From NCBI GenBank assembly GCA_963692915.1, contig OY843584.1:661186-693185 (forward strand): 32,000 bases of DNA, given 5' to 3'. The first letter of the stretch is position 1. Every line of letters starts with the position of its first letter. Source of the stretch: Cenarchaeum sp. (lineage in GTDB: Archaea; Thermoproteota; Nitrososphaeria; Nitrososphaerales; Nitrosopumilaceae). Under the pieces are notes generated by a model that searched no databases, was not told the DNA's origin, and saw nothing but the letters and a program-made list of their open reading frames with translations. Shown piece by piece: positions 1-10,109 of this stretch. The translations under genes and the position numbers were made by a program.

Positions 1-128
1 AATTTATGCTCAAGAAGGAGCTTGAGGAGCGGAGCCGTGTTTGGATCGGGAATTTGTGGATCACTCAAAATACCCGGCATGTCTTCCGTGGCACGCTCGG
101 ATACTGTACCATATGCAGTGGAAGCCAT
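1..128 (-). CDS. Orphan ~190-aa protein family, copy 1 (N-terminal 42 codons only; gene runs off the left window edge)
   Basis: Minus-strand ATG at 128-126 reads MASTAYGTVSERATEDMPGILSDPQIPDPNTAPLLKLLLEHK. This is collinear with the N-terminus of the 2075..2635 paralog (MVSTAYGTVSERAIADIDSFLNDPFVADPNTAPLLKLLFEHK). DNA 1-128 aligns with about 2493-2620. Confidence 0.55.
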   Translation of the reverse strand, partial: MASTAYGTVSERATEDMPGILSDPQIPDPNTAPLLKLLLEHK

Positions 129-184
129 GCTATGGCACCCCACAGACCCAGTCTGCTCCCCGCGTCACCATGACTCGGCATAAT

Positions 185-287
185 GGCCCAAATGATTTAA
201 CTGTTTTTGGAATTCCACGCGCGGGAATCGGGCATTCCTGCCCATTTTGGCCAAACGGGCGCGATCCCGCCGATCCGTTTACCGCAA
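185..287. repeat. Repeat R, copy A (~100 bp; candidate mobile-element end or promoter module)
   Basis: Sequence: ggcccaaatgatttaactgtttttggaattccacgcgcgggaatcgggcattcctgcccattttggccaaacgggcgcgatcccgccgatccgtttaccgca. It recurs at 1207-1309 and 2677-2742, and in split form at 14944-14989 + 16097-16153. It contains the imperfect inverted repeat ggcccaaatg / cattttggcc. Confidence 0.8.
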
Positions 288-608
288 CGACGCCCGCCGG
301 GGGCGCCGTGGCCAGGCTCCACTGCGCCCTGCCGCGAATGTTCGCGTTCTGCACGTCGGCGTCGAGCCCACGAACGGCACCGCCGAGGGGGCGCTGCGGC
401 ACGGGGCCGTGCGCCGCAAGGCAGGCGGCCAGCGAAAGTGGAGCGCCGCCACGGCCGAGCGCATGCCTACCACCCCGGTATGCCTCTTCACGTGGGGATC
501 CACGGGATAGAGCACGGCCGGGGAGGTCATGCTGGCGATCCGGGTGCTGACCTCATGATGCACGTAACTCCAAATCAGTAAAAAGGCAGATTCGTGCCCA
601 ACTGCGCA

Positions 609-1193
609 TTAGCGCATATAGCCCAACTGGAGTAGCTCGTCATAAACTTGCTCTACCTGTTTTTTTGTGTAGGTTGGTTTTGTGGACGCAACGTATTTGG
701 GCAATTCTGGTCCAACAATCCTATCGCGGAATTCAACATGAATTAGCGTACTTGCAATTTCAAGCCAAGTGAGATCATGCGTATGCGCAAACTGTAAAAA
801 TTCGTCCATGCGAGACCAATAGGCAATATACTGGGAATCCGCCTCAGATATGTCAGGTAAAAGACGATAGTCACTGACAAGTCCCGGGGAATGTGCCCCA
901 TGTCTAAAAAGCACATGATAATAGCTGAATGCCAGATCAAACACATTTTGGGCAAAAAAGACACACAGTTGGATTTTGATGCGGTCGTTTTCTGACGCAT
1001 CTCTGGGGTTTTTGTCACAGTCGATCAATTTGTGCTCAAAAAGGAGCTTGAGGAAAGAGGCTGTGTTGGGATCGGGAATTCGTGGATCATTCAAAATACT
1101 TGGCATGTCCACCGTGGCACGCTCAGACACTGCTCGATATGCCGGAGGAACAACGTAGTACCCACAGTCCCAGTATGCCCTCCACGCCATCAT
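609..1193 (-). CDS. Orphan ~190-aa protein family, copy 2 (start uncertain: ATG-ATG at 1193/1190, or the internal Met of ..VDMPSILNDP..)
   Basis: 194-aa ORF. From ..AVSERAT.. to the C-terminus it is collinear, and at most positions identical by eye, with 2075..2635. A shared stretch is FLQFAHTHDLTWLEIAS.LIH.EFRDRIVGPELPKYVA..KPTYTKKQVEQVYDELLQ. I recognise no family. Confidence 0.7.
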   Translation of the reverse strand: MMAWRAYWDCGYYVVPPAYRAVSERATVDMPSILNDPRIPDPNTASFLKLLFEHKLIDCDKNPRDASENDRIKIQLCVFFAQNVFDLAFSYYHVLFRHGAHSPGLVSDYRLLPDISEADSQYIAYWSRMDEFLQFAHTHDLTWLEIASTLIHVEFRDRIVGPELPKYVASTKPTYTKKQVEQVYDELLQLGYMR

Positions 1194-1206
1194 GTCCCAA
1201 CAGAAT

Positions 1207-1309
1207 TACCCAAATAATTTAACCGTTTTTGGAATTCCACGCACGGGAATCTGGCATTCCTGCCCATTTTGGCCAAATGGGCGTGATCCTGCCGATCCGT
1301 TTACCGCAA
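1207..1309. repeat. Repeat R, copy B
   Basis: Sequence: tacccaaataatttaaccgtttttggaattccacgcacgggaatctggcattcctgcccattttggccaaatgggcgtgatcctgccgatccgtttaccgca. It differs from copy A by only a handful of substitutions after the first 10 nt. Confidence 0.8.
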
Positions 1310-1401
1310 TGGGGGGAATTCCTGCCCATGTGCGCCATAGCGCCACCGGAGAGCTTAATCGTGCAAGGACCGCATCAGGCCAAAGTCCACGGCTCAGGGC
1401 A

Positions 1402-1420
1402 GGCTATATCATATATAGCC
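1402..1420 (+). promoter_or_regulatory. Palindromic TATA-like element upstream of the 2-TM gene
   Basis: ggctatatcatatatagcc is a perfect 8-bp-arm palindrome. Its AT core ends about 21 nt before ATG 1441. Confidence 0.4.
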
Positions 1421-1440
1421 GGGCAGCGTGGAATTCGTGC

Positions 1441-2049
1441 ATGACGTCTGCCTATTGGAAAGCGCACGGCGACCCGCCAATAGTCGTGGGGACTGCGGCG
1501 ACCACGATATACATGCTAGGCATCATACTGGCCATAGCAAGGGTCACCGGAATCGTCCACGACGTCGGATCGTTTGGCGCCGTCATTGGGACCATGGCGT
1601 TGGGGTTTATGGTCTACATATTTGTGAATAACACAACGCGCGACAACAAGGCCGAGCGGGGCAAAGAGTATGAATTGAGGGAGGCTGACAGTGAAAACAT
1701 CAGTCGATTAACACACATAATCGAGAAGTGTGCGATAACGCTGCGAAAATTAAATCAACATAAAGAAACATCCAAGGAAAGACCAGACATGGCAATACAA
1801 CGCCTGCTAGGACTGATAGACAATATTTCAACGAATTATGAGAAGTATTTGAGTCTAGACGGCCAGAAACTAGTCGGAATTATTAGGGACACAGTTGATG
1901 AGATGATGTTTAACGATCAAGAAGGAAAGATACACATGGATGACGCGATTAAAAATATCGTACAATTAAAACAACACGTAATGGATGTAGATGATCAAGA
2001 GCTTAAAAGAAACAGAGAGTCAACCATGCATGGAGTGCCAAATCAGTGA
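1441..2049 (+). CDS. Hypothetical membrane protein: two N-terminal TM helices plus a charged, helical (coiled-coil-like) C-terminal domain
   Basis: This is the in-frame ATG at 1441 of ORF 1192..2049; the upstream part of that ORF merely reads across repeat R. Hydrophobic stretches are IVVGTAATTIYMLGIILAIARVTGIV and FGAVIGTMALGFMVYIFV. A K/E/D/Q-rich domain follows. Low GC (24/60 on line 1861-1920). No family recognised. Confidence 0.65.
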   Translation: MTSAYWKAHGDPPIVVGTAATTIYMLGIILAIARVTGIVHDVGSFGAVIGTMALGFMVYIFVNNTTRDNKAERGKEYELREADSENISRLTHIIEKCAITLRKLNQHKETSKERPDMAIQRLLGLIDNISTNYEKYLSLDGQKLVGIIRDTVDEMMFNDQEGKIHMDDAIKNIVQLKQHVMDVDDQELKRNRESTMHGVPNQ

Positions 2050-2074
2050 AGGCAGATTCGTGCCCAACTGCGCA

Positions 2075-2635
2075 TTAGCGCATATGGCCCGACTGGAGCA
2101 GCTCGTCATAAACTTGCTCTACCTGTTTTTTTGTGTAGGTTGGTTTTAAGGTCGCAACATATTTGGGCAATTCTGGTCCAACAATCCTATCGCGAAATTC
2201 AATATGAATTAGCCTACTTGCAATTTCAAGCCAAGTGAGATCATGCGTATGCGCAAACTGTAAAAATTCGTCCTTGCGAGGCCAATAGTCAATCTCCCGG
2301 GAATCCGCCTCAGATATGTCAGGCAAGAGATAGTAATCACGTGCAAGTTGCGGGGAATGTGGCCCATGTTCAAAAAGCCCATGGCGATAGGTAAATTCCA
2401 GACCAAACACATTTTGGGCAAAATAGACATACAGTTGGATTTTGATGCGTTCGTGTTCTGACGCATCTCTGGGGTTTTTGTCACAGTCGATCAATTTGTG
2501 CTCAAAAAGGAGCTTGAGGAGCGGAGCCGTGTTGGGATCGGCAACGAACGGATCGTTCAAAAAAGAGTCTATGTCCGCTATTGCACGCTCAGATACTGTA
2601 CCATATGCCGTGGAAACCATGCTATGGCACCCCAC
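2075..2635 (-). CDS. Orphan ~190-aa protein family, copy 3 (ORF-track start 2635 is GTG; the in-frame ATG at 2620 matches the copy-1 start)
   Basis: 186-aa ORF, paralogous to 609..1193 and 1..128. Same 3' flank and same upstream repeat R. Confidence 0.7.
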   Translation of the reverse strand: MGCHSMVSTAYGTVSERAIADIDSFLNDPFVADPNTAPLLKLLFEHKLIDCDKNPRDASEHERIKIQLYVYFAQNVFGLEFTYRHGLFEHGPHSPQLARDYYLLPDISEADSREIDYWPRKDEFLQFAHTHDLTWLEIASRLIHIEFRDRIVGPELPKYVATLKPTYTKKQVEQVYDELLQSGHMR

Positions 2636-2676
2636 AGACCCAGTCTGCTCGCCGTGTCACCATGACTCGGCAGAGT

Positions 2677-2742
2677 GGCCCAAATGATTTAACTGTTTTT
2701 AGAATTCCACGCGTGAGAATCGGGCATTCCTGCCCATTTTGA
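2677..2742. repeat. Repeat R, copy C (left two-thirds well conserved; the right part decays to weak similarity up to ~2795)
   Basis: ggcccaaatgatttaactgtttttagaattccacgcgtgagaatcgggcattcctgcccattttga aligns with copy A 185-250. Further right only gatcc and acgcccgcc islands remain. Confidence 0.7.
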
Positions 2743-2943
2743 CCAGGCAGCAGATCCTCGTGCGCCTGCCCCCTAGCCCACAGACACGCCCGCCACGCCC
2801 CCGCCAATGCGCGACGTGGCCGCAGGCAGGATCATGGGATGCCCGAGGCGACCGCACGGCTCACCCTGGCGGCCCCACGCCATGCCAGGATCACGCGAGT
2901 CGCGCCGCAAGCAAGATATGTGCCGGTGCGGCGCAGTCATGCG

Positions 2944-3189
2944 ATGAGCGCAAACACGATCAAAAAGGCCAAGAGGCTCGTAGAGTCTGGCGGCGTGGCC
3001 AAGATCGAGGACGACATCTACCAGGTCAGGTCATCAAGTGACGCCTCAAAGTCGTACATTGTTGACGGCGAGTCGTGTGACTGTCCCGGATACGCCAACT
3101 TTTACAAGTTTCACGGCGGCAAGGGGATAAAGGCAAACTGCTCGCACCTAGAGGCAGTCAGGCTGTTCCGAGGCGACGAGGAAGCTTAG
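2944..3189 (+). CDS. Small SWIM-type zinc-finger protein (81 aa)
   Basis: CDCPGYANFYKFHGGKGIKANCSHLEAV fits the SWIM CxCx(n)CxH signature. Start taken at the in-frame ATG 2944 (MSANTIKKAKRLVESGG..). The upstream part of ORF 2839..3189 is Arg/Pro/Ala-rich GC-rich read-through. Confidence 0.7.
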   Translation: MSANTIKKAKRLVESGGVAKIEDDIYQVRSSSDASKSYIVDGESCDCPGYANFYKFHGGKGIKANCSHLEAVRLFRGDEEA

Positions 3190-4808: not shown

Positions 4809-5114
4809 CGAGAGCACGACGGTGCCGGACTGCTGCGAATAGCCCGTCAGGTTTGCGTGCATTCGCATCGGCTCATCGCCAAAGGAGCGAACCTCGATCT
4901 CGGCGAACTCGGTGCTCGGGCCGAGCATCGCGCCTGTCAGCATAGGGAGCATGGACGCATCGCGCATGCTCGCCCTGATCGTCGGCCATGGGCCTTCCGG
5001 ACCGGCCTCTAGTGCCGCCGTGGCCACGCCGTGTGCGGTGCCGCCGAGGATCACCTCGTATCGAGAGCCCTCATGCGCGCGCTCTATCTCGCCGGGAAGC
5101 ACGCCTGTGTCCAT
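4773..5114 (-). CDS. Hypothetical protein (113 aa)
   Basis: It fills the gap between the J-domain gene and the HD gene. TTTAAA (5142-5147) lies 28 nt upstream of ATG 5114, which fits a leaderless transcript. No recognisable domain. The 3' end overlaps the J-domain gene by 36 nt. Confidence 0.4.
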   Translation of the reverse strand: MDTGVLPGEIERAHEGSRYEVILGGTAHGVATAALEAGPEGPWPTIRASMRDASMLPMLTGAMLGPSTEFAEIEVRSFGDEPMRMHANLTGYSQQSGTVVLSLRVIRAERALP

Positions 5115-6488: not shown

Positions 6489-6568
6489 TCGCAGCGTAAT
6501 GCGATTTGCCAATGTGTGAACAATTTTTAACTGTATCTTGATAATATCATGGAAGTGGTCGTATTGGC

Positions 6569-6712
6569 ATGACGACGGGGTACTGCGTAAAGTGCAGAAC
6601 CAAGCGGGAGATCAAGGGCGCAAAGCCTACGGTCATGAAGAATGGCAAGCCCGCTGTCAGCGGCACGTGCTCAACGTGCAGCACCCGGATGTTCAAGATC
6701 GGCAAGCTCTGA
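6569..6712 (+). CDS. 47-aa four-cysteine zinc-ribbon protein (resembles DUF5679-type mini-proteins, from memory)
   Basis: Hand translation: MTTGYCVKCRTKREIKGAKPTVMKNGKPAVSGTCSTCSTRMFKIGKL*. CxxC-x23-CxxC. AT-rich promoter-like sequence at 6521-6550 (caatttttaactgtatcttgataatatc). Oligo-T run just downstream. Confidence 0.65.
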   Translation: MTTGYCVKCRTKREIKGAKPTVMKNGKPAVSGTCSTCSTRMFKIGKL

Positions 6713-6792: not shown

Positions 6793-8220
6793 CTATTGAA
6801 AGGGATCTATGAATGGGCAGTTAACAATGTGGTCCGAGTCCATCGGGCGCGCGAGCGTGATGCTCACCTTGCCCTCTGACCTCATGGCCTGTATGTCACC
6901 GACATTCTCAAGAAGGCGCGCATCATGCGAATCCTCCCACGTGACTACGGATATGCGCCACATTGGCGAGTATCCGGCGTCTCCCAGAGCCGCCGTGGCT
7001 ATGCCCGGCTGGAAGCCGAGAGGCCCGGGACCCTTGAGTCCGTTGGTGAACTGGAACAGGTCAACTGCGGCCGAATTTGCGATCAGGCTTGCCGACGTGG
7101 GCGTGTGTGGCACTCCCATCCCGTCTGCAGGGCCGGCCGGCGTGGCATCAGTCACGATATAGTATATCGTGCGGCCATCCGGACCCCAGCCCCTGTGAGC
7201 GACAAACGTCACAGTCATGGCATCAGTGTCGATCTCGGTGACCTGGCCGCCCCCATAGGGCAGCTTGTCATCGATCTCGGCCTCATTTACCATGAGCTGT
7301 CCGCCAGGCCACATGACATGTGGCATGTTGATCACGACATCAAGCTCGGTGAGTATTATCTCACCAGCATCGCTTGCGGCCATGATCTCGGCCTCTGACA
7401 TTAGAACCCGAGGCGTTGTGTCAGCGTTCCACGTGACATGGACGTGACTCTTCAGCGCACTGTACGTGTCTGGCATTGCCGGCGTCGATGTAAAGACTTC
7501 ACCCTGGTATCCGTGCACTCCGTTTCCCTCCATGCCGTTTGTGAACATGTAGGTCTTTGAGAGAGCCGCATCTGGCGCATTGGCCAGTGTCGGGGCAAGC
7601 TCTACCTTCCAGCCCTGGCTCTCCGTGATTACGGTGGCATGGGTTGGGTCGCTAGAGTCCGTTATGACAAAGTATACACTCTGTCCGTCATGGTATCCCT
7701 CGTGTAGCGGCAGTGTTGCCGGAACGCTTGCGCGTGAAAGCAGCAGCTTGTGCGCATATGAGCCATCCTTGTCGTGCATGCGGTCCATCTTGTCGTGATC
7801 CATCATTTTGTCGTGGTCCATCATCTTGTCGTTGGACATCCTGTCGTGACCCATCATCTTGTCTTGATCCATCATCTTGTCGTGGTCCATCATCTTGTCG
7901 TGGTCCATCATCTTGTCGTGGTCCATCATCTTGTCATGTTCCATCTCGTCGTGCATGCGGTCATTCATCGCGTCGTCAGATTCCATGTGTTTGTCCATCG
8001 CGTCATCATGGTCAGACATTGCCGATTCCATCGCCGGTTCTGATGGCGAGATCATCGACTCCATTGTCTTTGTCAGGTAGTCTGGCCCAACCTCGGAGCA
8101 CAGCCTGTCCCCACAGACGACACGCGCAGCATCAGCAGCCGTAAGGCTACCGGCGGTCAGCGAAATGGCCATTGCTGGCACTATCGCAAATAGCAGCATT
8201 CGTTTCTGCAATGTGTTCAT
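6793..8220 (-). CDS. Secreted protein with a Met/His/Asp-rich tandem-repeat region (putative metal, probably copper, binding) and an internally duplicated C-terminal domain
   Basis: Signal peptide MNTLQKRMLLFAIVPAMAISLTAGSLTAADA. Then ~100 aa of M/H/D-rich sequence including (DHDKMM)n. Two related halves follow: (SVYFVITDSSDP...MFTNGMEGNG) and (TIYYIVTDATPA...QFTNGLKGPG). A TATA-like ttttaa (8245-8250, minus strand) lies 24 nt upstream of ATG 8220. Confidence 0.8.
   Translation of the reverse strand: MNTLQKRMLLFAIVPAMAISLTAGSLTAADAARVVCGDRLCSEVGPDYLTKTMESMISPSEPAMESAMSDHDDAMDKHMESDDAMNDRMHDEMEHDKMMDHDKMMDHDKMMDHDKMMDQDKMMGHDRMSNDKMMDHDKMMDHDKMDRMHDKDGSYAHKLLLSRASVPATLPLHEGYHDGQSVYFVITDSSDPTHATVITESQGWKVELAPTLANAPDAALSKTYMFTNGMEGNGVHGYQGEVFTSTPAMPDTYSALKSHVHVTWNADTTPRVLMSEAEIMAASDAGEIILTELDVVINMPHVMWPGGQLMVNEAEIDDKLPYGGGQVTEIDTDAMTVTFVAHRGWGPDGRTIYYIVTDATPAGPADGMGVPHTPTSASLIANSAAVDLFQFTNGLKGPGPLGFQPGIATAALGDAGYSPMWRISVVTWEDSHDARLLENVGDIQAMRSEGKVSITLARPMDSDHIVNCPFIDPFQ
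7783..7941. repeat. About 9 tandem units of an 18-bp (two are 15-bp) coding repeat
   Basis: The plus-strand unit catcatcttgtcgtggtc is the reverse complement of gac cac gac aag atg atg (DHDKMM). Three consecutive perfect copies lie at 7870-7923. Confidence 0.9.
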
Positions 8221-8387: not shown

Positions 8388-10109
8388 TTACTTTGAGCGA
8401 AGCATGTCCTGGATTTGGGCAAGTATGAGCTGCGCCTTTTCCTTGTTCTCAAATGTCTGAACCTTGTCATCGAGTATCGTGTCGATCTCGTAGCTCTTGT
8501 TGACGAGTATGTCTGCGACATGCTCATCAAGGGTCCGGTTGCCTATGAGATAGTACGCAAAGACCGTGTTCTTTTGCCCGATGCGGTGGAGGCGATCCTC
8601 GGCCTGTTGGTGGACAGCCGGACTCCAGTCAAGCTCGGCAAAGATGACATAGCGGGCCTTGCTAAGGTTGATCCCAACATTGCCTGCGCGAAGTCCGGCG
8701 ATCATGAGGTTAGACTCGCCCCCCTGAAACGAGTCGATGTTGGCCTGACGAGCCTTGTCAGTCTGGCCTCCAATTACCGTTGTGGGCTCAAACTCGGCGA
8801 GCTTTTCGTTGAGGAGCTTGTGTATTGACTTGTGGTGGCAAAAGACCACAACGCTCTCCTCTATCTCCATGATATTTTGCACAAAATTGATGACATGTGG
8901 CATCTTTGCCAGTCCGGCCACTTGTCGCTCGCTTTGGATCGCGCGCTGGTATGACGAGTACTTGTCGAGTGTGGATTTTGAGGCGAGCTGCTCCTCCTCT
9001 AGGCGAGTCCATATTTTCCTGAGCTCTGCCCTGTAATAGTCAATGTCAGCATCAATGTACTCCTGGTATCGAACCTTGTCCTGCAGGTCCTTGAGGACAT
9101 CGCCCTTTTTGCGGCGCAGCATGACGTGCTTGTGCAGCTTTTCGCGCAAGAGCCTGCGCTTGTTCTCCAGCACTAATGACTTGCCACGCTCGTTCACATA
9201 GCAAAAGTACTGGCAAAACTCCGAATAGCTTCCAAGGAGTCCGGGGCTGAGGACATCCACGATTGGCCATATCTCTGAGCCGTGGTTGAATATTGGCGTG
9301 CCGGACAGGCCAATCCTGTGCTCAAGTGACGGCATTGCGGAGATCTTTCGTATTGCCGAGTGCTTTTTGGTAGTCTTGGAGCGCATATGGTGAACCTCGT
9401 CGCACACAAGCGTCTTTAGGTTTATCTTTAAAAAGTCCGGAACACGCTTTTCAAGAAGCTCATAGTTGATAACGTAAAAGTCGCTCTTTTCAAGTATCTT
9501 GCGACGACCTCGCCTGATGAGCTTTGATGTTGGTGATGATGAGTCCACCATACGGCCATTCTTGCTCCTCTTTTTGAGAAACTTGTCAATCTCGCGCTCC
9601 CAGTTCTTGAGCGTGACGAGCGGTGCGACTACCAGTACCGGAAACGCATTCTTTTCGGTCGCAAGGTACGCAAGTGTTTGGACCGTCTTGCCAAGACCCA
9701 TCTCATCGGCAAGGAGGGCGTTGCCATTGGACTTTATCAGAAAGTCAAGACCCTCGCGCTGGAATCCCAAAAGCTTGCCGCGAAACTGCGATCCAGGATT
9801 GACCTTTGAGAGCTTTTCGATGGGTGCGCGCACCTTGGGACGAGAGACGCTGGCCTTGCCGACCCTGCGCTGCCATGCCGACTTTGAGAGCACGTCAAGC
9901 TGGCAATGGCCCATTATCTGCTTTATGCGCTCGACATTCTCGGGCTTGTCTGGCACGATGACCTCGTCAGGTCCGTCACCATACCACGACTGTGGTATGA
10001 GCTGCGAGGCCATTCCAACGGCGCGACTGCCGGTGAGCTTCCAGCTCCATGCGTTGGAGTACTTGTCCATGACATACTCTAACTTGCCTGCGCTTGCCAA
10101 CTCATGCAC
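8388..10109 (-). CDS. SNF2/SWI2-family helicase-like ATPase
   Basis: Motif I is LLADEMGLGKTVQTLAYL. Motif II is VCDEVHHMRS (DExH). Motif III is LSGTPIFN. C-terminal helicase motifs are LRAGNVGINLSKARYVIFAELDWSPAVHQQAEDRLHRIGQ. The ORF-track start 10109 is GTG; the first ATG is at 10070 (MDKYSNAW..). GC is markedly lower than in flanking genes. Confidence 0.9.
   Translation of the reverse strand: MHELASAGKLEYVMDKYSNAWSWKLTGSRAVGMASQLIPQSWYGDGPDEVIVPDKPENVERIKQIMGHCQLDVLSKSAWQRRVGKASVSRPKVRAPIEKLSKVNPGSQFRGKLLGFQREGLDFLIKSNGNALLADEMGLGKTVQTLAYLATEKNAFPVLVVAPLVTLKNWEREIDKFLKKRSKNGRMVDSSSPTSKLIRRGRRKILEKSDFYVINYELLEKRVPDFLKINLKTLVCDEVHHMRSKTTKKHSAIRKISAMPSLEHRIGLSGTPIFNHGSEIWPIVDVLSPGLLGSYSEFCQYFCYVNERGKSLVLENKRRLLREKLHKHVMLRRKKGDVLKDLQDKVRYQEYIDADIDYYRAELRKIWTRLEEEQLASKSTLDKYSSYQRAIQSERQVAGLAKMPHVINFVQNIMEIEESVVVFCHHKSIHKLLNEKLAEFEPTTVIGGQTDKARQANIDSFQGGESNLMIAGLRAGNVGINLSKARYVIFAELDWSPAVHQQAEDRLHRIGQKNTVFAYYLIGNRTLDEHVADILVNKSYEIDTILDDKVQTFENKEKAQLILAQIQDMLRSK

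Follow-up and report, generated by a model that had tools for sequence, protein, structure and literature searches.

A partly decayed tandem array of DarG-related, candidate toxin-antitoxin-like genes in the archaeon Cenarchaeum

Organisation of the locus

Cenarchaeum is a sponge-associated ammonia-oxidising archaeon. The window considered here is a stretch of 32,000 nucleotides (nt) from a Cenarchaeum sp. assembly (GCA_963692915.1, contig OY843584.1, forward-strand positions 661,186 to 693,185), at the start of which lies a tandem gene array. The array holds three copies of a minus-strand gene, here called g181 after the 181 amino acids (aa) of its product, each with a repeat, R, on its 5' side. 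Between the g181 copies lie one intact gene for a 202-aa protein with two transmembrane (2-TM) segments, g202, and one GC-rich filler. The two genes are discussed below as a possible toxin-antitoxin (TA)-like pair.

Copy 1 of g181 (1..128, minus strand) is cut by the window start and continues beyond position 1, leaving only the N-terminal 42 codons, whose translation, MASTAYGTVSERATEDMPGILSDPQIPDPNTAPLLKLLLEHK, is identical to the start of the database protein P0003. Copy 2 (609..1193, minus) is a 194-aa open reading frame (ORF) from which an intact partner gene is absent. The ORF of copy 3 (2075-2635, minus) reads as 186 aa from a GTG; the start used by the family is the ATG at 2620, giving a gene at 2075..2620 (minus) and a protein of 181 aa that is identical to P0002. 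Mutual nucleotide identity between the three copies is 82-95% (5-18% divergence). A repeat search of the window paired 583-882 with 2049-2348 (300 nt, 92% identity) and 1-253 with 2493-2745 (87%), and for repeats this long and this alike chance is ruled out by far. Repeats and ORFs together bear out the first-pass annotation, which was made from the sequence by itself and had described paralogous minus-strand genes at 1-128, 609-1193 and 2075-2635, each preceded by R.

The intact g202 (1441..2049, plus; identical to P0007) runs towards copy 3, and the two stop codons are separated by a 25-nt spacer (2050..2074) that is common to 583-608. The last 25 nt of a second, destroyed g202 lie at 558..582 (plus), as seen from the repeat match and a BLAST map, and are 76% identical to the end of the intact gene at 2026-2050, so that copies 2 and 3 do have a 3' flank in common, the tail of the 2-TM gene included. 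A BLAST map drawn with the elements of the window found no additional array copies in the remainder of the window.

The foreign, low-GC composition that had been noted for the block is real. Over 500-nt intervals the GC content is 43-46% at 501-1000 and 1501-2500, while the remainder of the window has 55-73%, and by element it is 46% for g181, 45% for g202, 51% for R and 73% for the spacer at 288-557. The block thus stands at 45-46% GC in a genome of ~60% GC. The array had also been placed against mobile-element ends, of which none were found. It is flanked by conserved genes of housekeeping type with fixed synteny in relatives, and the only trace of a mobile element is a weak IS66-like similarity inside the spacer. 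No tRNA and no Rfam match were found in the window, and integration at a tRNA or att-type site was rejected because of the missing tRNA.

The g181 protein and its relationship to DarG

The g181 proteins of the window match no model in Pfam, NCBIfam, PADLOC (including DarG) or PHROGs directly, and the weak matches of window proteins to PglZ, Cas1 and Monellin lie far under the cut-offs. A search of 1.84 billion cluster representatives with a profile of seven paralogues retrieved 361 relatives at E<1e-3, 79 of them at E<1e-10 and spanning query residues ~30-180. The relatives are mostly 145-170 aa long and carry the motif R-x-K-x-QK, followed 27 residues on by GPYSP and then by WLE(I/V)A(S/T)T. 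Some have been named "uncharacterized protein YwgA" by the Joint Genome Institute (JGI), and by profile the whole ~150-aa domain is alike. The first-pass annotation had recognised no family for either protein of the pair; g181 can now be assigned to these YwgA-like proteins, for which no Pfam model was found.

The family leads in turn to DarG. The PADLOC model of DarG is matched by 84 of 100 relatives (best E 1e-8) and the NCBIfam model antitoxin_DarG by 55 of the 100, with the DarG-model matches beginning at about position 169 of 329, that is, past the macrodomain. The N-terminal ~45 residues of the PADLOC profile PDC-M19A are matched by 42 of the 100. When a profile of 100 sequences was compared with the PDB, a single match was obtained, 7yk3_B (E 0.0024, over the core motif), which is the DarG fragment in the Mycobacterium tuberculosis DarT-DarG complex (PDB 7YK3). 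The same structure was reached by modelling. An early AlphaFold2 (AF2) model from 7 close paralogues had a mean predicted local distance difference test (pLDDT) score of 73 and no fold match; the model made from 100 relatives is confident (pLDDT 92.3) and has 7yk3_B as its top Foldseek match in the PDB (probability 0.98, TM-scores 0.53/0.51, 192 columns). According to Deep et al. 2023, as cited in PMC11825919, DarG binds DarT and inhibits it through its C-terminal domain; a summary of the dual mechanism of DarG is given in PMC8832971. By profile and by predicted fold, then, g181 belongs to a large family of YwgA-like proteins that share homology with the C-terminal domain by which DarG binds DarT.

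The g181 protein is not itself a DarG. Likeness extends to the core motif, LxIQKxxYxA ... YGPYS in chain B of 7YK3, to a similar helical fold, and to the position of the gene beside one of toxin type. Unlike DarG, g181 is a stand-alone protein of 181 aa that lacks an N-terminal macrodomain or NADAR domain (no Pfam or NCBIfam match), and no DarT (DUF4433) gene is found near it, its neighbours being the 2-TM gene, R, a SWIM-like ORF and a gene of the HAD family. Moreover, DarTG forms an operon, whereas the partner of g181 is a 2-TM protein here and a PIN-domain protein in the wider family, and is convergently encoded. A search of BFVD with the g181 model gave no significant viral analogue.

A Panacea/SocA identity, raised by the QK...GP motif, was rejected since homology is not detectable. 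The window proteins do not match SocA_Panacea, a single relative of the 100 does so at E 0.09 with the Pfam model and a single one at E 0.009 with that of NCBIfam, and hhalign of the g181 family against a Panacea protein returned a probability of 0.2.

Three contigs from thaumarchaeal metagenome-assembled genomes (MAGs; L007-L009) encode a 210-aa relative of g181, P0166, which has 44% identity and belongs to a 66%-GC thaumarchaeon. Directly upstream of its gene are ORFs that read like fragments of transposases, and no 2-TM partner was recognisable at these three loci.

The g202 protein and its putative promoter region

No family was found for the product of g202, either in Pfam, NCBIfam, PADLOC, PHROGs or the PDB, where a g202 profile gave chance-level matches only. 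Hydropathy places hydrophobic segments at residues ~14-36 and ~45-62, after which come 140 residues of which 34% are charged; from its composition this cytoplasmic part is likely to be helical or coiled-coil. The protein is proposed here as a membrane effector, a toxin-like partner of g181. It is not a PIN protein, as the g202 family scores E 0.28-0.57 against a profile of PIN partners (described below) and no Pfam PIN match is present.

Upstream of g202 lies a segment termed pre202 (1310..1440, plus), a putative promoter region that is present only in units with an intact g202. It opens with a partial second R core (1314-1337) and contains TATATCATATATA at 1405-1417, a box confined to such units and centred ~30 nt upstream of the g202 ATG, a distance that suggests a leaderless mRNA. 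A run of seven T residues (2126-2132) is found 77 nt past the g202 stop, within the coding sequence of g181; it could terminate g202 transcripts inside g181 and so create an antisense overlap.

Gene neighbourhoods of the wider family

Genes beside the YwgA-like relatives were surveyed in 84 loci outside Cenarchaeum, 80 of them metagenomic (L013-L092) and four obtained by protein look-up (L004, L010-L012). The metagenome scan used a narrower alignment (A5) and its loci form a subfamily chosen by one peptide pattern; neighbouring ORFs were called crudely and searched with a PIN profile grown from Pfam-confirmed partners. In all four looked-up loci the YwgA-like gene sits beside a PIN-domain gene, PF01850 being above threshold in three (L010-L012). 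Proteins of PIN type, ~170 aa in length, account for 53 of the 70 downstream neighbours and for 47 of the 49 that are tightly adjacent, and they keep the acidic residues D, E, D and D. Convergent orientation was found for 42 of the 53. Clustered at 70% identity the PIN partners fall into 41 groups, 31 convergent, with gaps mostly of -29 to +30 nt, and 10 co-directional. No description of such a YwgA-like and PIN pair was found in the literature searched (YwgA, PDC-M19). The number of YwgA-like genes never exceeds one in any of the 84 loci, indicating that tandem amplification is peculiar to the Cenarchaeum lineage. In L012 a SocA_Panacea (PF13274) gene is located at 57-554 (plus), two genes upstream of the YwgA-like and PIN pair on the same short contig, so that two antitoxin-type genes are clustered there.

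The pairing is reminiscent of VapBC in that the wider family is tightly associated with ~170-aa PIN proteins retaining their acidic catalytic residues. It differs in that g202 itself is not PIN (profile E>0.28), that the g181-type protein is not a VapB of AbrB, CopG, Phd or MerR type, and that the YwgA-like and PIN pairs are mostly convergent with overlapping 3' ends. As for PDC-M19, a candidate defence system in PADLOC of which PDC-M19A is ~294 residues long, the window proteins do not match it, and the literature searched yielded no paper on it.

For the nearest thaumarchaeal relatives of g181 the partner is not a PIN protein but a 2-TM and helical one. In the Logan contig L095 the gene for the g181 homologue P0013 is convergent, across a 36-nt gap, with that of a 196-aa 2-TM protein which is 31% identical to g202 over 186 residues (E 2e-28) and is clearly its homologue; the two families therefore co-occur outside Cenarchaeum. 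This thaumarchaeal contig has a GC content of 62% and the pair one of 45%, and the pair sits at a different site, with PFOR and AmoB-like neighbours. That a pair of 45% GC should lie inside genomes of ~60% GC in two lineages and at different loci speaks for its accessory character. The contig also has long poly-G runs (4926-4945, 6568-6580 and at its end) that look like sequencing artefacts. Elsewhere, P0163, which is 43% identical to g181, is followed 3 nt on by a protein of 204 aa that has a pair of TM helices at its N-terminus and a charged C-terminal domain, and P0012 shows the beginning of the same arrangement. The 204-aa partner is co-directional with the g181 relative in L093 and L094 (gap 3-4 nt), and the one in L094 has no sequence similarity to g202, the architecture alone being common.

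The first-pass annotation had taken the g181 gene and the 2-TM gene across R as a divergent pair. This has to be reversed. In both genomes compared, the intact g202 has the same orthologue as its convergent neighbour (copy 3 in the window, unit 2 in the related array L002), whereas its divergent neighbour across R differs, being like unit 5 here and unit 3 in L002. Together with the geometry of L095 and of the PIN partners, this identifies the convergent pair, arranged tail to tail, as the functional one. The convergent layout characterises the family as a whole and is not incidental to this array.

Repeat R and the expression of g181

Repeat R occupies 139..287 (copy 1, in the 5' region of g181 copy 1), 1161..1309 (copy 2) and 2631..2779 (copy 3, terminal), copies 2 and 3 being 86% and 77% identical to copy 1. 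In copy 1 a TATA-like and transcription factor B recognition element (BRE)-like sequence, ATTTAACTG, is located at 195-203, followed by inverted repeats GGAATTCC-N6-GGGAATC at 209-229 and GGGCA-N4-TGCCC at 230-243. The corresponding elements are a TATA-like box at 1217-1225 and inverted repeats at 1231-1251 and 1252-1265 in copy 2, and a box at 2687-2695 with inverted repeats at 2702-2721 and 2722-2735 in copy 3. Homology of the terminal copy ends at ~2745, with unique flank beyond, and its distal 40 nt have diverged from the internal copies; the terminal copy of L002 shows the same.

An alignment of 10 copies, in the orientation of g181, defines a core, GGCCAAAATGGGCAGGAATGCCCGATTCCCGCGCGTGGAATTCCAAAAACAGTTAAATCATTTGGG, that is nearly invariant and better conserved than the genes. 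In it the inverted repeats GGGCA-N4-TGCCC and GATTCC-N7-GGAATT stand just upstream of an A-rich stretch and CAGTTAAAT, a sequence that resembles the archaeal BRE/TATA and recurs in L095, ~30 nt before the homologue's start codon. The idea that R might be an RNA gene was rejected, as there is no Rfam match and RNAalifold detected no covariation; given this lack of covariation R is read as promoter and possible operator DNA.

A short upstream open reading frame (uORF) of 13 codons is conserved in every R copy, with its ATG ~24 nt downstream of the TATA-like box and its TAG ending 1 nt before the g181 ATG. It is found at 130..171 (minus) in copy 1, from the alignment of the 10 copies, and at 2622..2663 (minus) in copy 3, where sequence and alignment give the peptide MVTRRADWVCGVP followed by a stop. 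This layout suggests a leaderless transcript with coupled re-initiation at g181. In copy 2 (uORF 1155-1193, minus) the family ATG is missing, and deletion of 4 nt has joined the uORF to g181 in frame, which explains the odd N-terminus of that protein, beginning MMAWRAYWDCGYY, and suggests that transcripts begin at the uORF ATG.

Related arrays and the GC-rich spacer

Close relatives of both proteins occur on three contigs only, namely one of 1,644,826 bp that encodes proteins identical to those of the window and is presumably from the same genome, the chromosome OY843768.1 ("MAG: Cenarchaeum sp.", 1,976,240 bp) and a contig of 118,781 bp, the latter two being from one sample; at >60% identity the family is likewise confined to these three Cenarchaeum contigs. 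Mapping the window's elements by BLAST revealed six units in both relatives (L001 and L002). They occupy the same syntenic position, flanked on one side by CofH/PGK and on the other by the SWIM-like ORF, an HAD phosphatase and DnaJ, the latter flank being the one also seen in the window. With three units in this genome and six in the relatives, copy number varies, and the family is multi-copy here, not a single-copy housekeeping one. The two relatives themselves differ in that one g181 copy is frameshifted in L001.

Two kinds of unit can be distinguished in these arrays. Type A units (u2 and u6) comprise g181, an intact g202, pre202 and R. In type B units (u1, u3, u4 and u5) a GC-rich segment has taken the place of the promoter and 5' three-quarters of g202, of which a tail of ~150-160 nt remains. 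By orthology, copy 3 of the window corresponds to u2 (dS 0.048 against the u2 of L002), copy 2 to u5 (nearest to unit 5 of L002, dN 0.045) and copy 1 to u6. A second intact 202-aa gene in the window's genome, P0009, is of the u6 type and must sit just past the window start. The picture of a tandem cassette of g181, R and the 2-TM gene that was amplified and then partly decayed is upheld.

The spacer at 288..557 (plus, 73% GC) is the type B segment of the window. It had been described as lacking a credible gene, which stands. It is not a unique stretch of junk but a conserved element that four of the relatives' six units possess; its identity is 83-96% in four units of L002, and its length varies from 259 to 279 nt. 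A coding gene was rejected because frames are not conserved between copies and there is no Pfam match; nor were inverted repeats found. One frame resembles the C-terminus of an IS66 transposase, and five of seven weak tblastn hits (plasmids, E 0.07-0.7) fall in IS66 transposase genes. Tentatively, the spacer may be a relic of the C-terminus of an IS66-family transposase.

Interpretation and alternatives

The reading that we favour, by a little more than an even chance, is that of a TA-like conflict module in which g181, a cytoplasmic helical protein, would act as neutraliser and g202 as membrane effector, and which has been amplified and has partly decayed. An accessory conflict module had been suggested earlier from context; homology and neighbourhood now add weight to it, its function remaining a deduction. 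On this reading the cassette arrived as low-GC foreign DNA and was then multiplied in tandem. In one unit a GC-rich fragment, probably derived from IS66, displaced the promoter and the 5' three-quarters of g202, and the crippled type B unit was itself amplified. Unequal recombination among the R and gene repeats has led to three units here and six in the relatives, with g181 copies staying intact and evolving fast while most effector copies were destroyed, such that antitoxin-like genes came to outnumber effector genes. Within the cell, the g181 protein may bind the cytoplasmic domain of g202 and hold it inactive. Should g181 be lost or titrated, for instance through viral infection or loss of the island, g202 would be expected to damage or depolarise the membrane and arrest the cell. 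R would carry the g181 promoter, and its two inverted repeats could act as an operator.

A number of observations weigh against this reading. The Foldseek E-value to 7yk3_B is weak (0.15), the sequence match to DarG is limited to a core motif of ~35-60 residues, and the link from the window's g181 to DarG is transitive, via the family profile. Searches of plasmid and phage collections gave no relatives, and the PIN association was measured on the subfamily picked by a single peptide pattern. Classical type II TA pairs are co-transcribed, whereas the genes here are convergent, with stops 25 nt apart in the window and 36 nt in L095. The ratio of nonsynonymous to synonymous substitution rates (dN/dS) between g181 paralogues is high, ~0.72 (range 0.31-1.03), with ~0.50 for g202. 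Coding sequence has diverged by 12.5%, little less than R (15%) and the GC-rich filler (14%), which implies that constraint is weak overall, and much of the array may be drifting. Finally, we infer the toxicity of g202, its binding by g181 and any role in defence.

Compared with generic type II TA systems, the g181-g202 pair has in common two small adjacent genes whose adjacency is kept across lineages, with homologous partners in L095 and by architecture in L093 and L094; it is unlike them in not forming one operon, co-directional genes being seen only in L093 and L094. A parallel is offered by Panacea antitoxins, which act against many toxins that are unrelated to one another, some of them membrane-spanning and with coiled-coil regions (PMC8832971). 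The apparent swap of a PIN for a 2-TM partner parallels this behaviour. In the PanA/PanT pairs (Panacea, DUF4065/SocA-like), as here, one small antitoxin-type domain accompanies unrelated toxins, and a QK...GP motif is superficially similar; Panacea differs in having no detectable homology to g181 and in forming operons. The module is a variant of TA-like pairs built on a DarG-type toxin-binding domain and not a categorically new system. A bolder extension, which can be offered only as a tentative possibility, is that YwgA-like, DarG-C-terminal-like proteins constitute an undescribed and widespread class of two-gene conflict systems with a convergent, 3'-overlapping and swappable partner, a PIN nuclease in most lineages and a 2-TM membrane effector in Thaumarchaeota, and that the Cenarchaeum array represents diversifying 'orphan antitoxins' with a possible role in anti-addiction or anti-toxin immunity, as opposed to mere decay.

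It is unlikely, though worth weighing, that g181 is instead a winged-helix-type regulator acting on the R palindromes and g202 an ordinary membrane protein, a sensor or anchor, under its control, the whole being a regulatory or adaptive family of the symbiont. The AF2 model of g181 has a helix-helix-beta-hairpin core and gives weak, partial Foldseek matches to Fur/Zur-type regulators, and every g181 TATA-like box is closely preceded by the two inverted repeats, both nearly invariant. Antitoxins of TA systems often bind DNA too, so that a regulator and a TA-like antitoxin overlap in this respect. However, the sole significant structural and sequence relative of g181 is a toxin-binding domain, the near-obligate PIN pairing of the family is unexpected for a generic regulator, and low GC, patchy distribution and variation in copy number suit an accessory element.

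Equally doubtful is the view that the array is an effectively neutral amplification of functionless genes, decaying under relaxed selection in a host-restricted symbiont. The dN/dS values of 0.5-1.0 between many copies, the similar rates of divergence in coding and non-coding parts, the destruction of g202 in four of six copies, the frameshifted g181 in L001 and the lost ATG of copy 2 are what such decay would produce. It accounts less well for the g181 ORFs, 12 of 13 of which are exactly 546 nt long without a stop, an outcome with P~0.005 over at least 173 substitutions under spectrum-matched random substitution, whereas the filler accumulates insertions and deletions. The TM hairpin of g202 is strongly constrained, with a ratio of nonsynonymous to synonymous differences (pN/pS) of 0.21, against 0.50 for the whole gene, the cytoplasmic domain being variable. 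In addition, the core of R is better conserved than the genes, the lost ATG of copy 2 is accompanied by the 4-nt deletion that restores the frame from the uORF ATG, and the pair is kept in the distant thaumarchaeal lineage of L095. From these patterns the g181 genes are read as maintained and fast-evolving, while part of the array may simply drift.

That the triplication is an assembly artefact, with repeats collapsed or expanded or with a chimeric MAG, is very unlikely: tandem repeats are prone to misassembly and the window's genome is, to judge from its relatives, probably a MAG, but the copies are 5-18% apart, each with many unique positions, copy number differs between genomes, and the same ordered units and flanks, with clear unit-by-unit orthology, recur in the chromosome-level OY843768.1 and in the separate 119-kb contig.

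If the TA-like reading is right, it would bear on a group of organisms, the ammonia-oxidising archaea, in which characterised TA and defence systems are very few and in which these genes are annotated as hypothetical, with no domain. Relating g181 to the domain of DarG that binds DarT provides a testable function for 361 YwgA-like relatives, mostly PIN-paired and in an unusual convergent layout. The Cenarchaeum array is, moreover, a natural experiment in which intact and toxin-less units lie side by side and copy number ranges from 3 to 6, and it allows one to ask whether surplus antitoxin genes are selected or are left behind.

Other features of the window

The array is adjoined by a 116-aa ORF (2839-3189, plus) whose CxC...CxH pattern, CDCPGYANFYKFHGGKGIKANCSH, recalls the SWIM zinc finger. 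It is kept beside the array in both L001 and L002 and has no Pfam match at E<=1. Further genes of the window encode an SNF2-family helicase (8388-10109, minus), an archaeal-type ProRS, PPDK and a DUF7482 protein (ORF 6793-8220, minus), the last three being in keeping with a thaumarchaeal origin. Within the DUF7482 gene an 18-nt tandem repeat is present in 9 copies at 7786-7945, with 84% matches; its unit on the coding strand, ATGGACCACGACAAGATG, encodes MDHDKM and so gives rise to a His/Asp-rich hexapeptide repeat.

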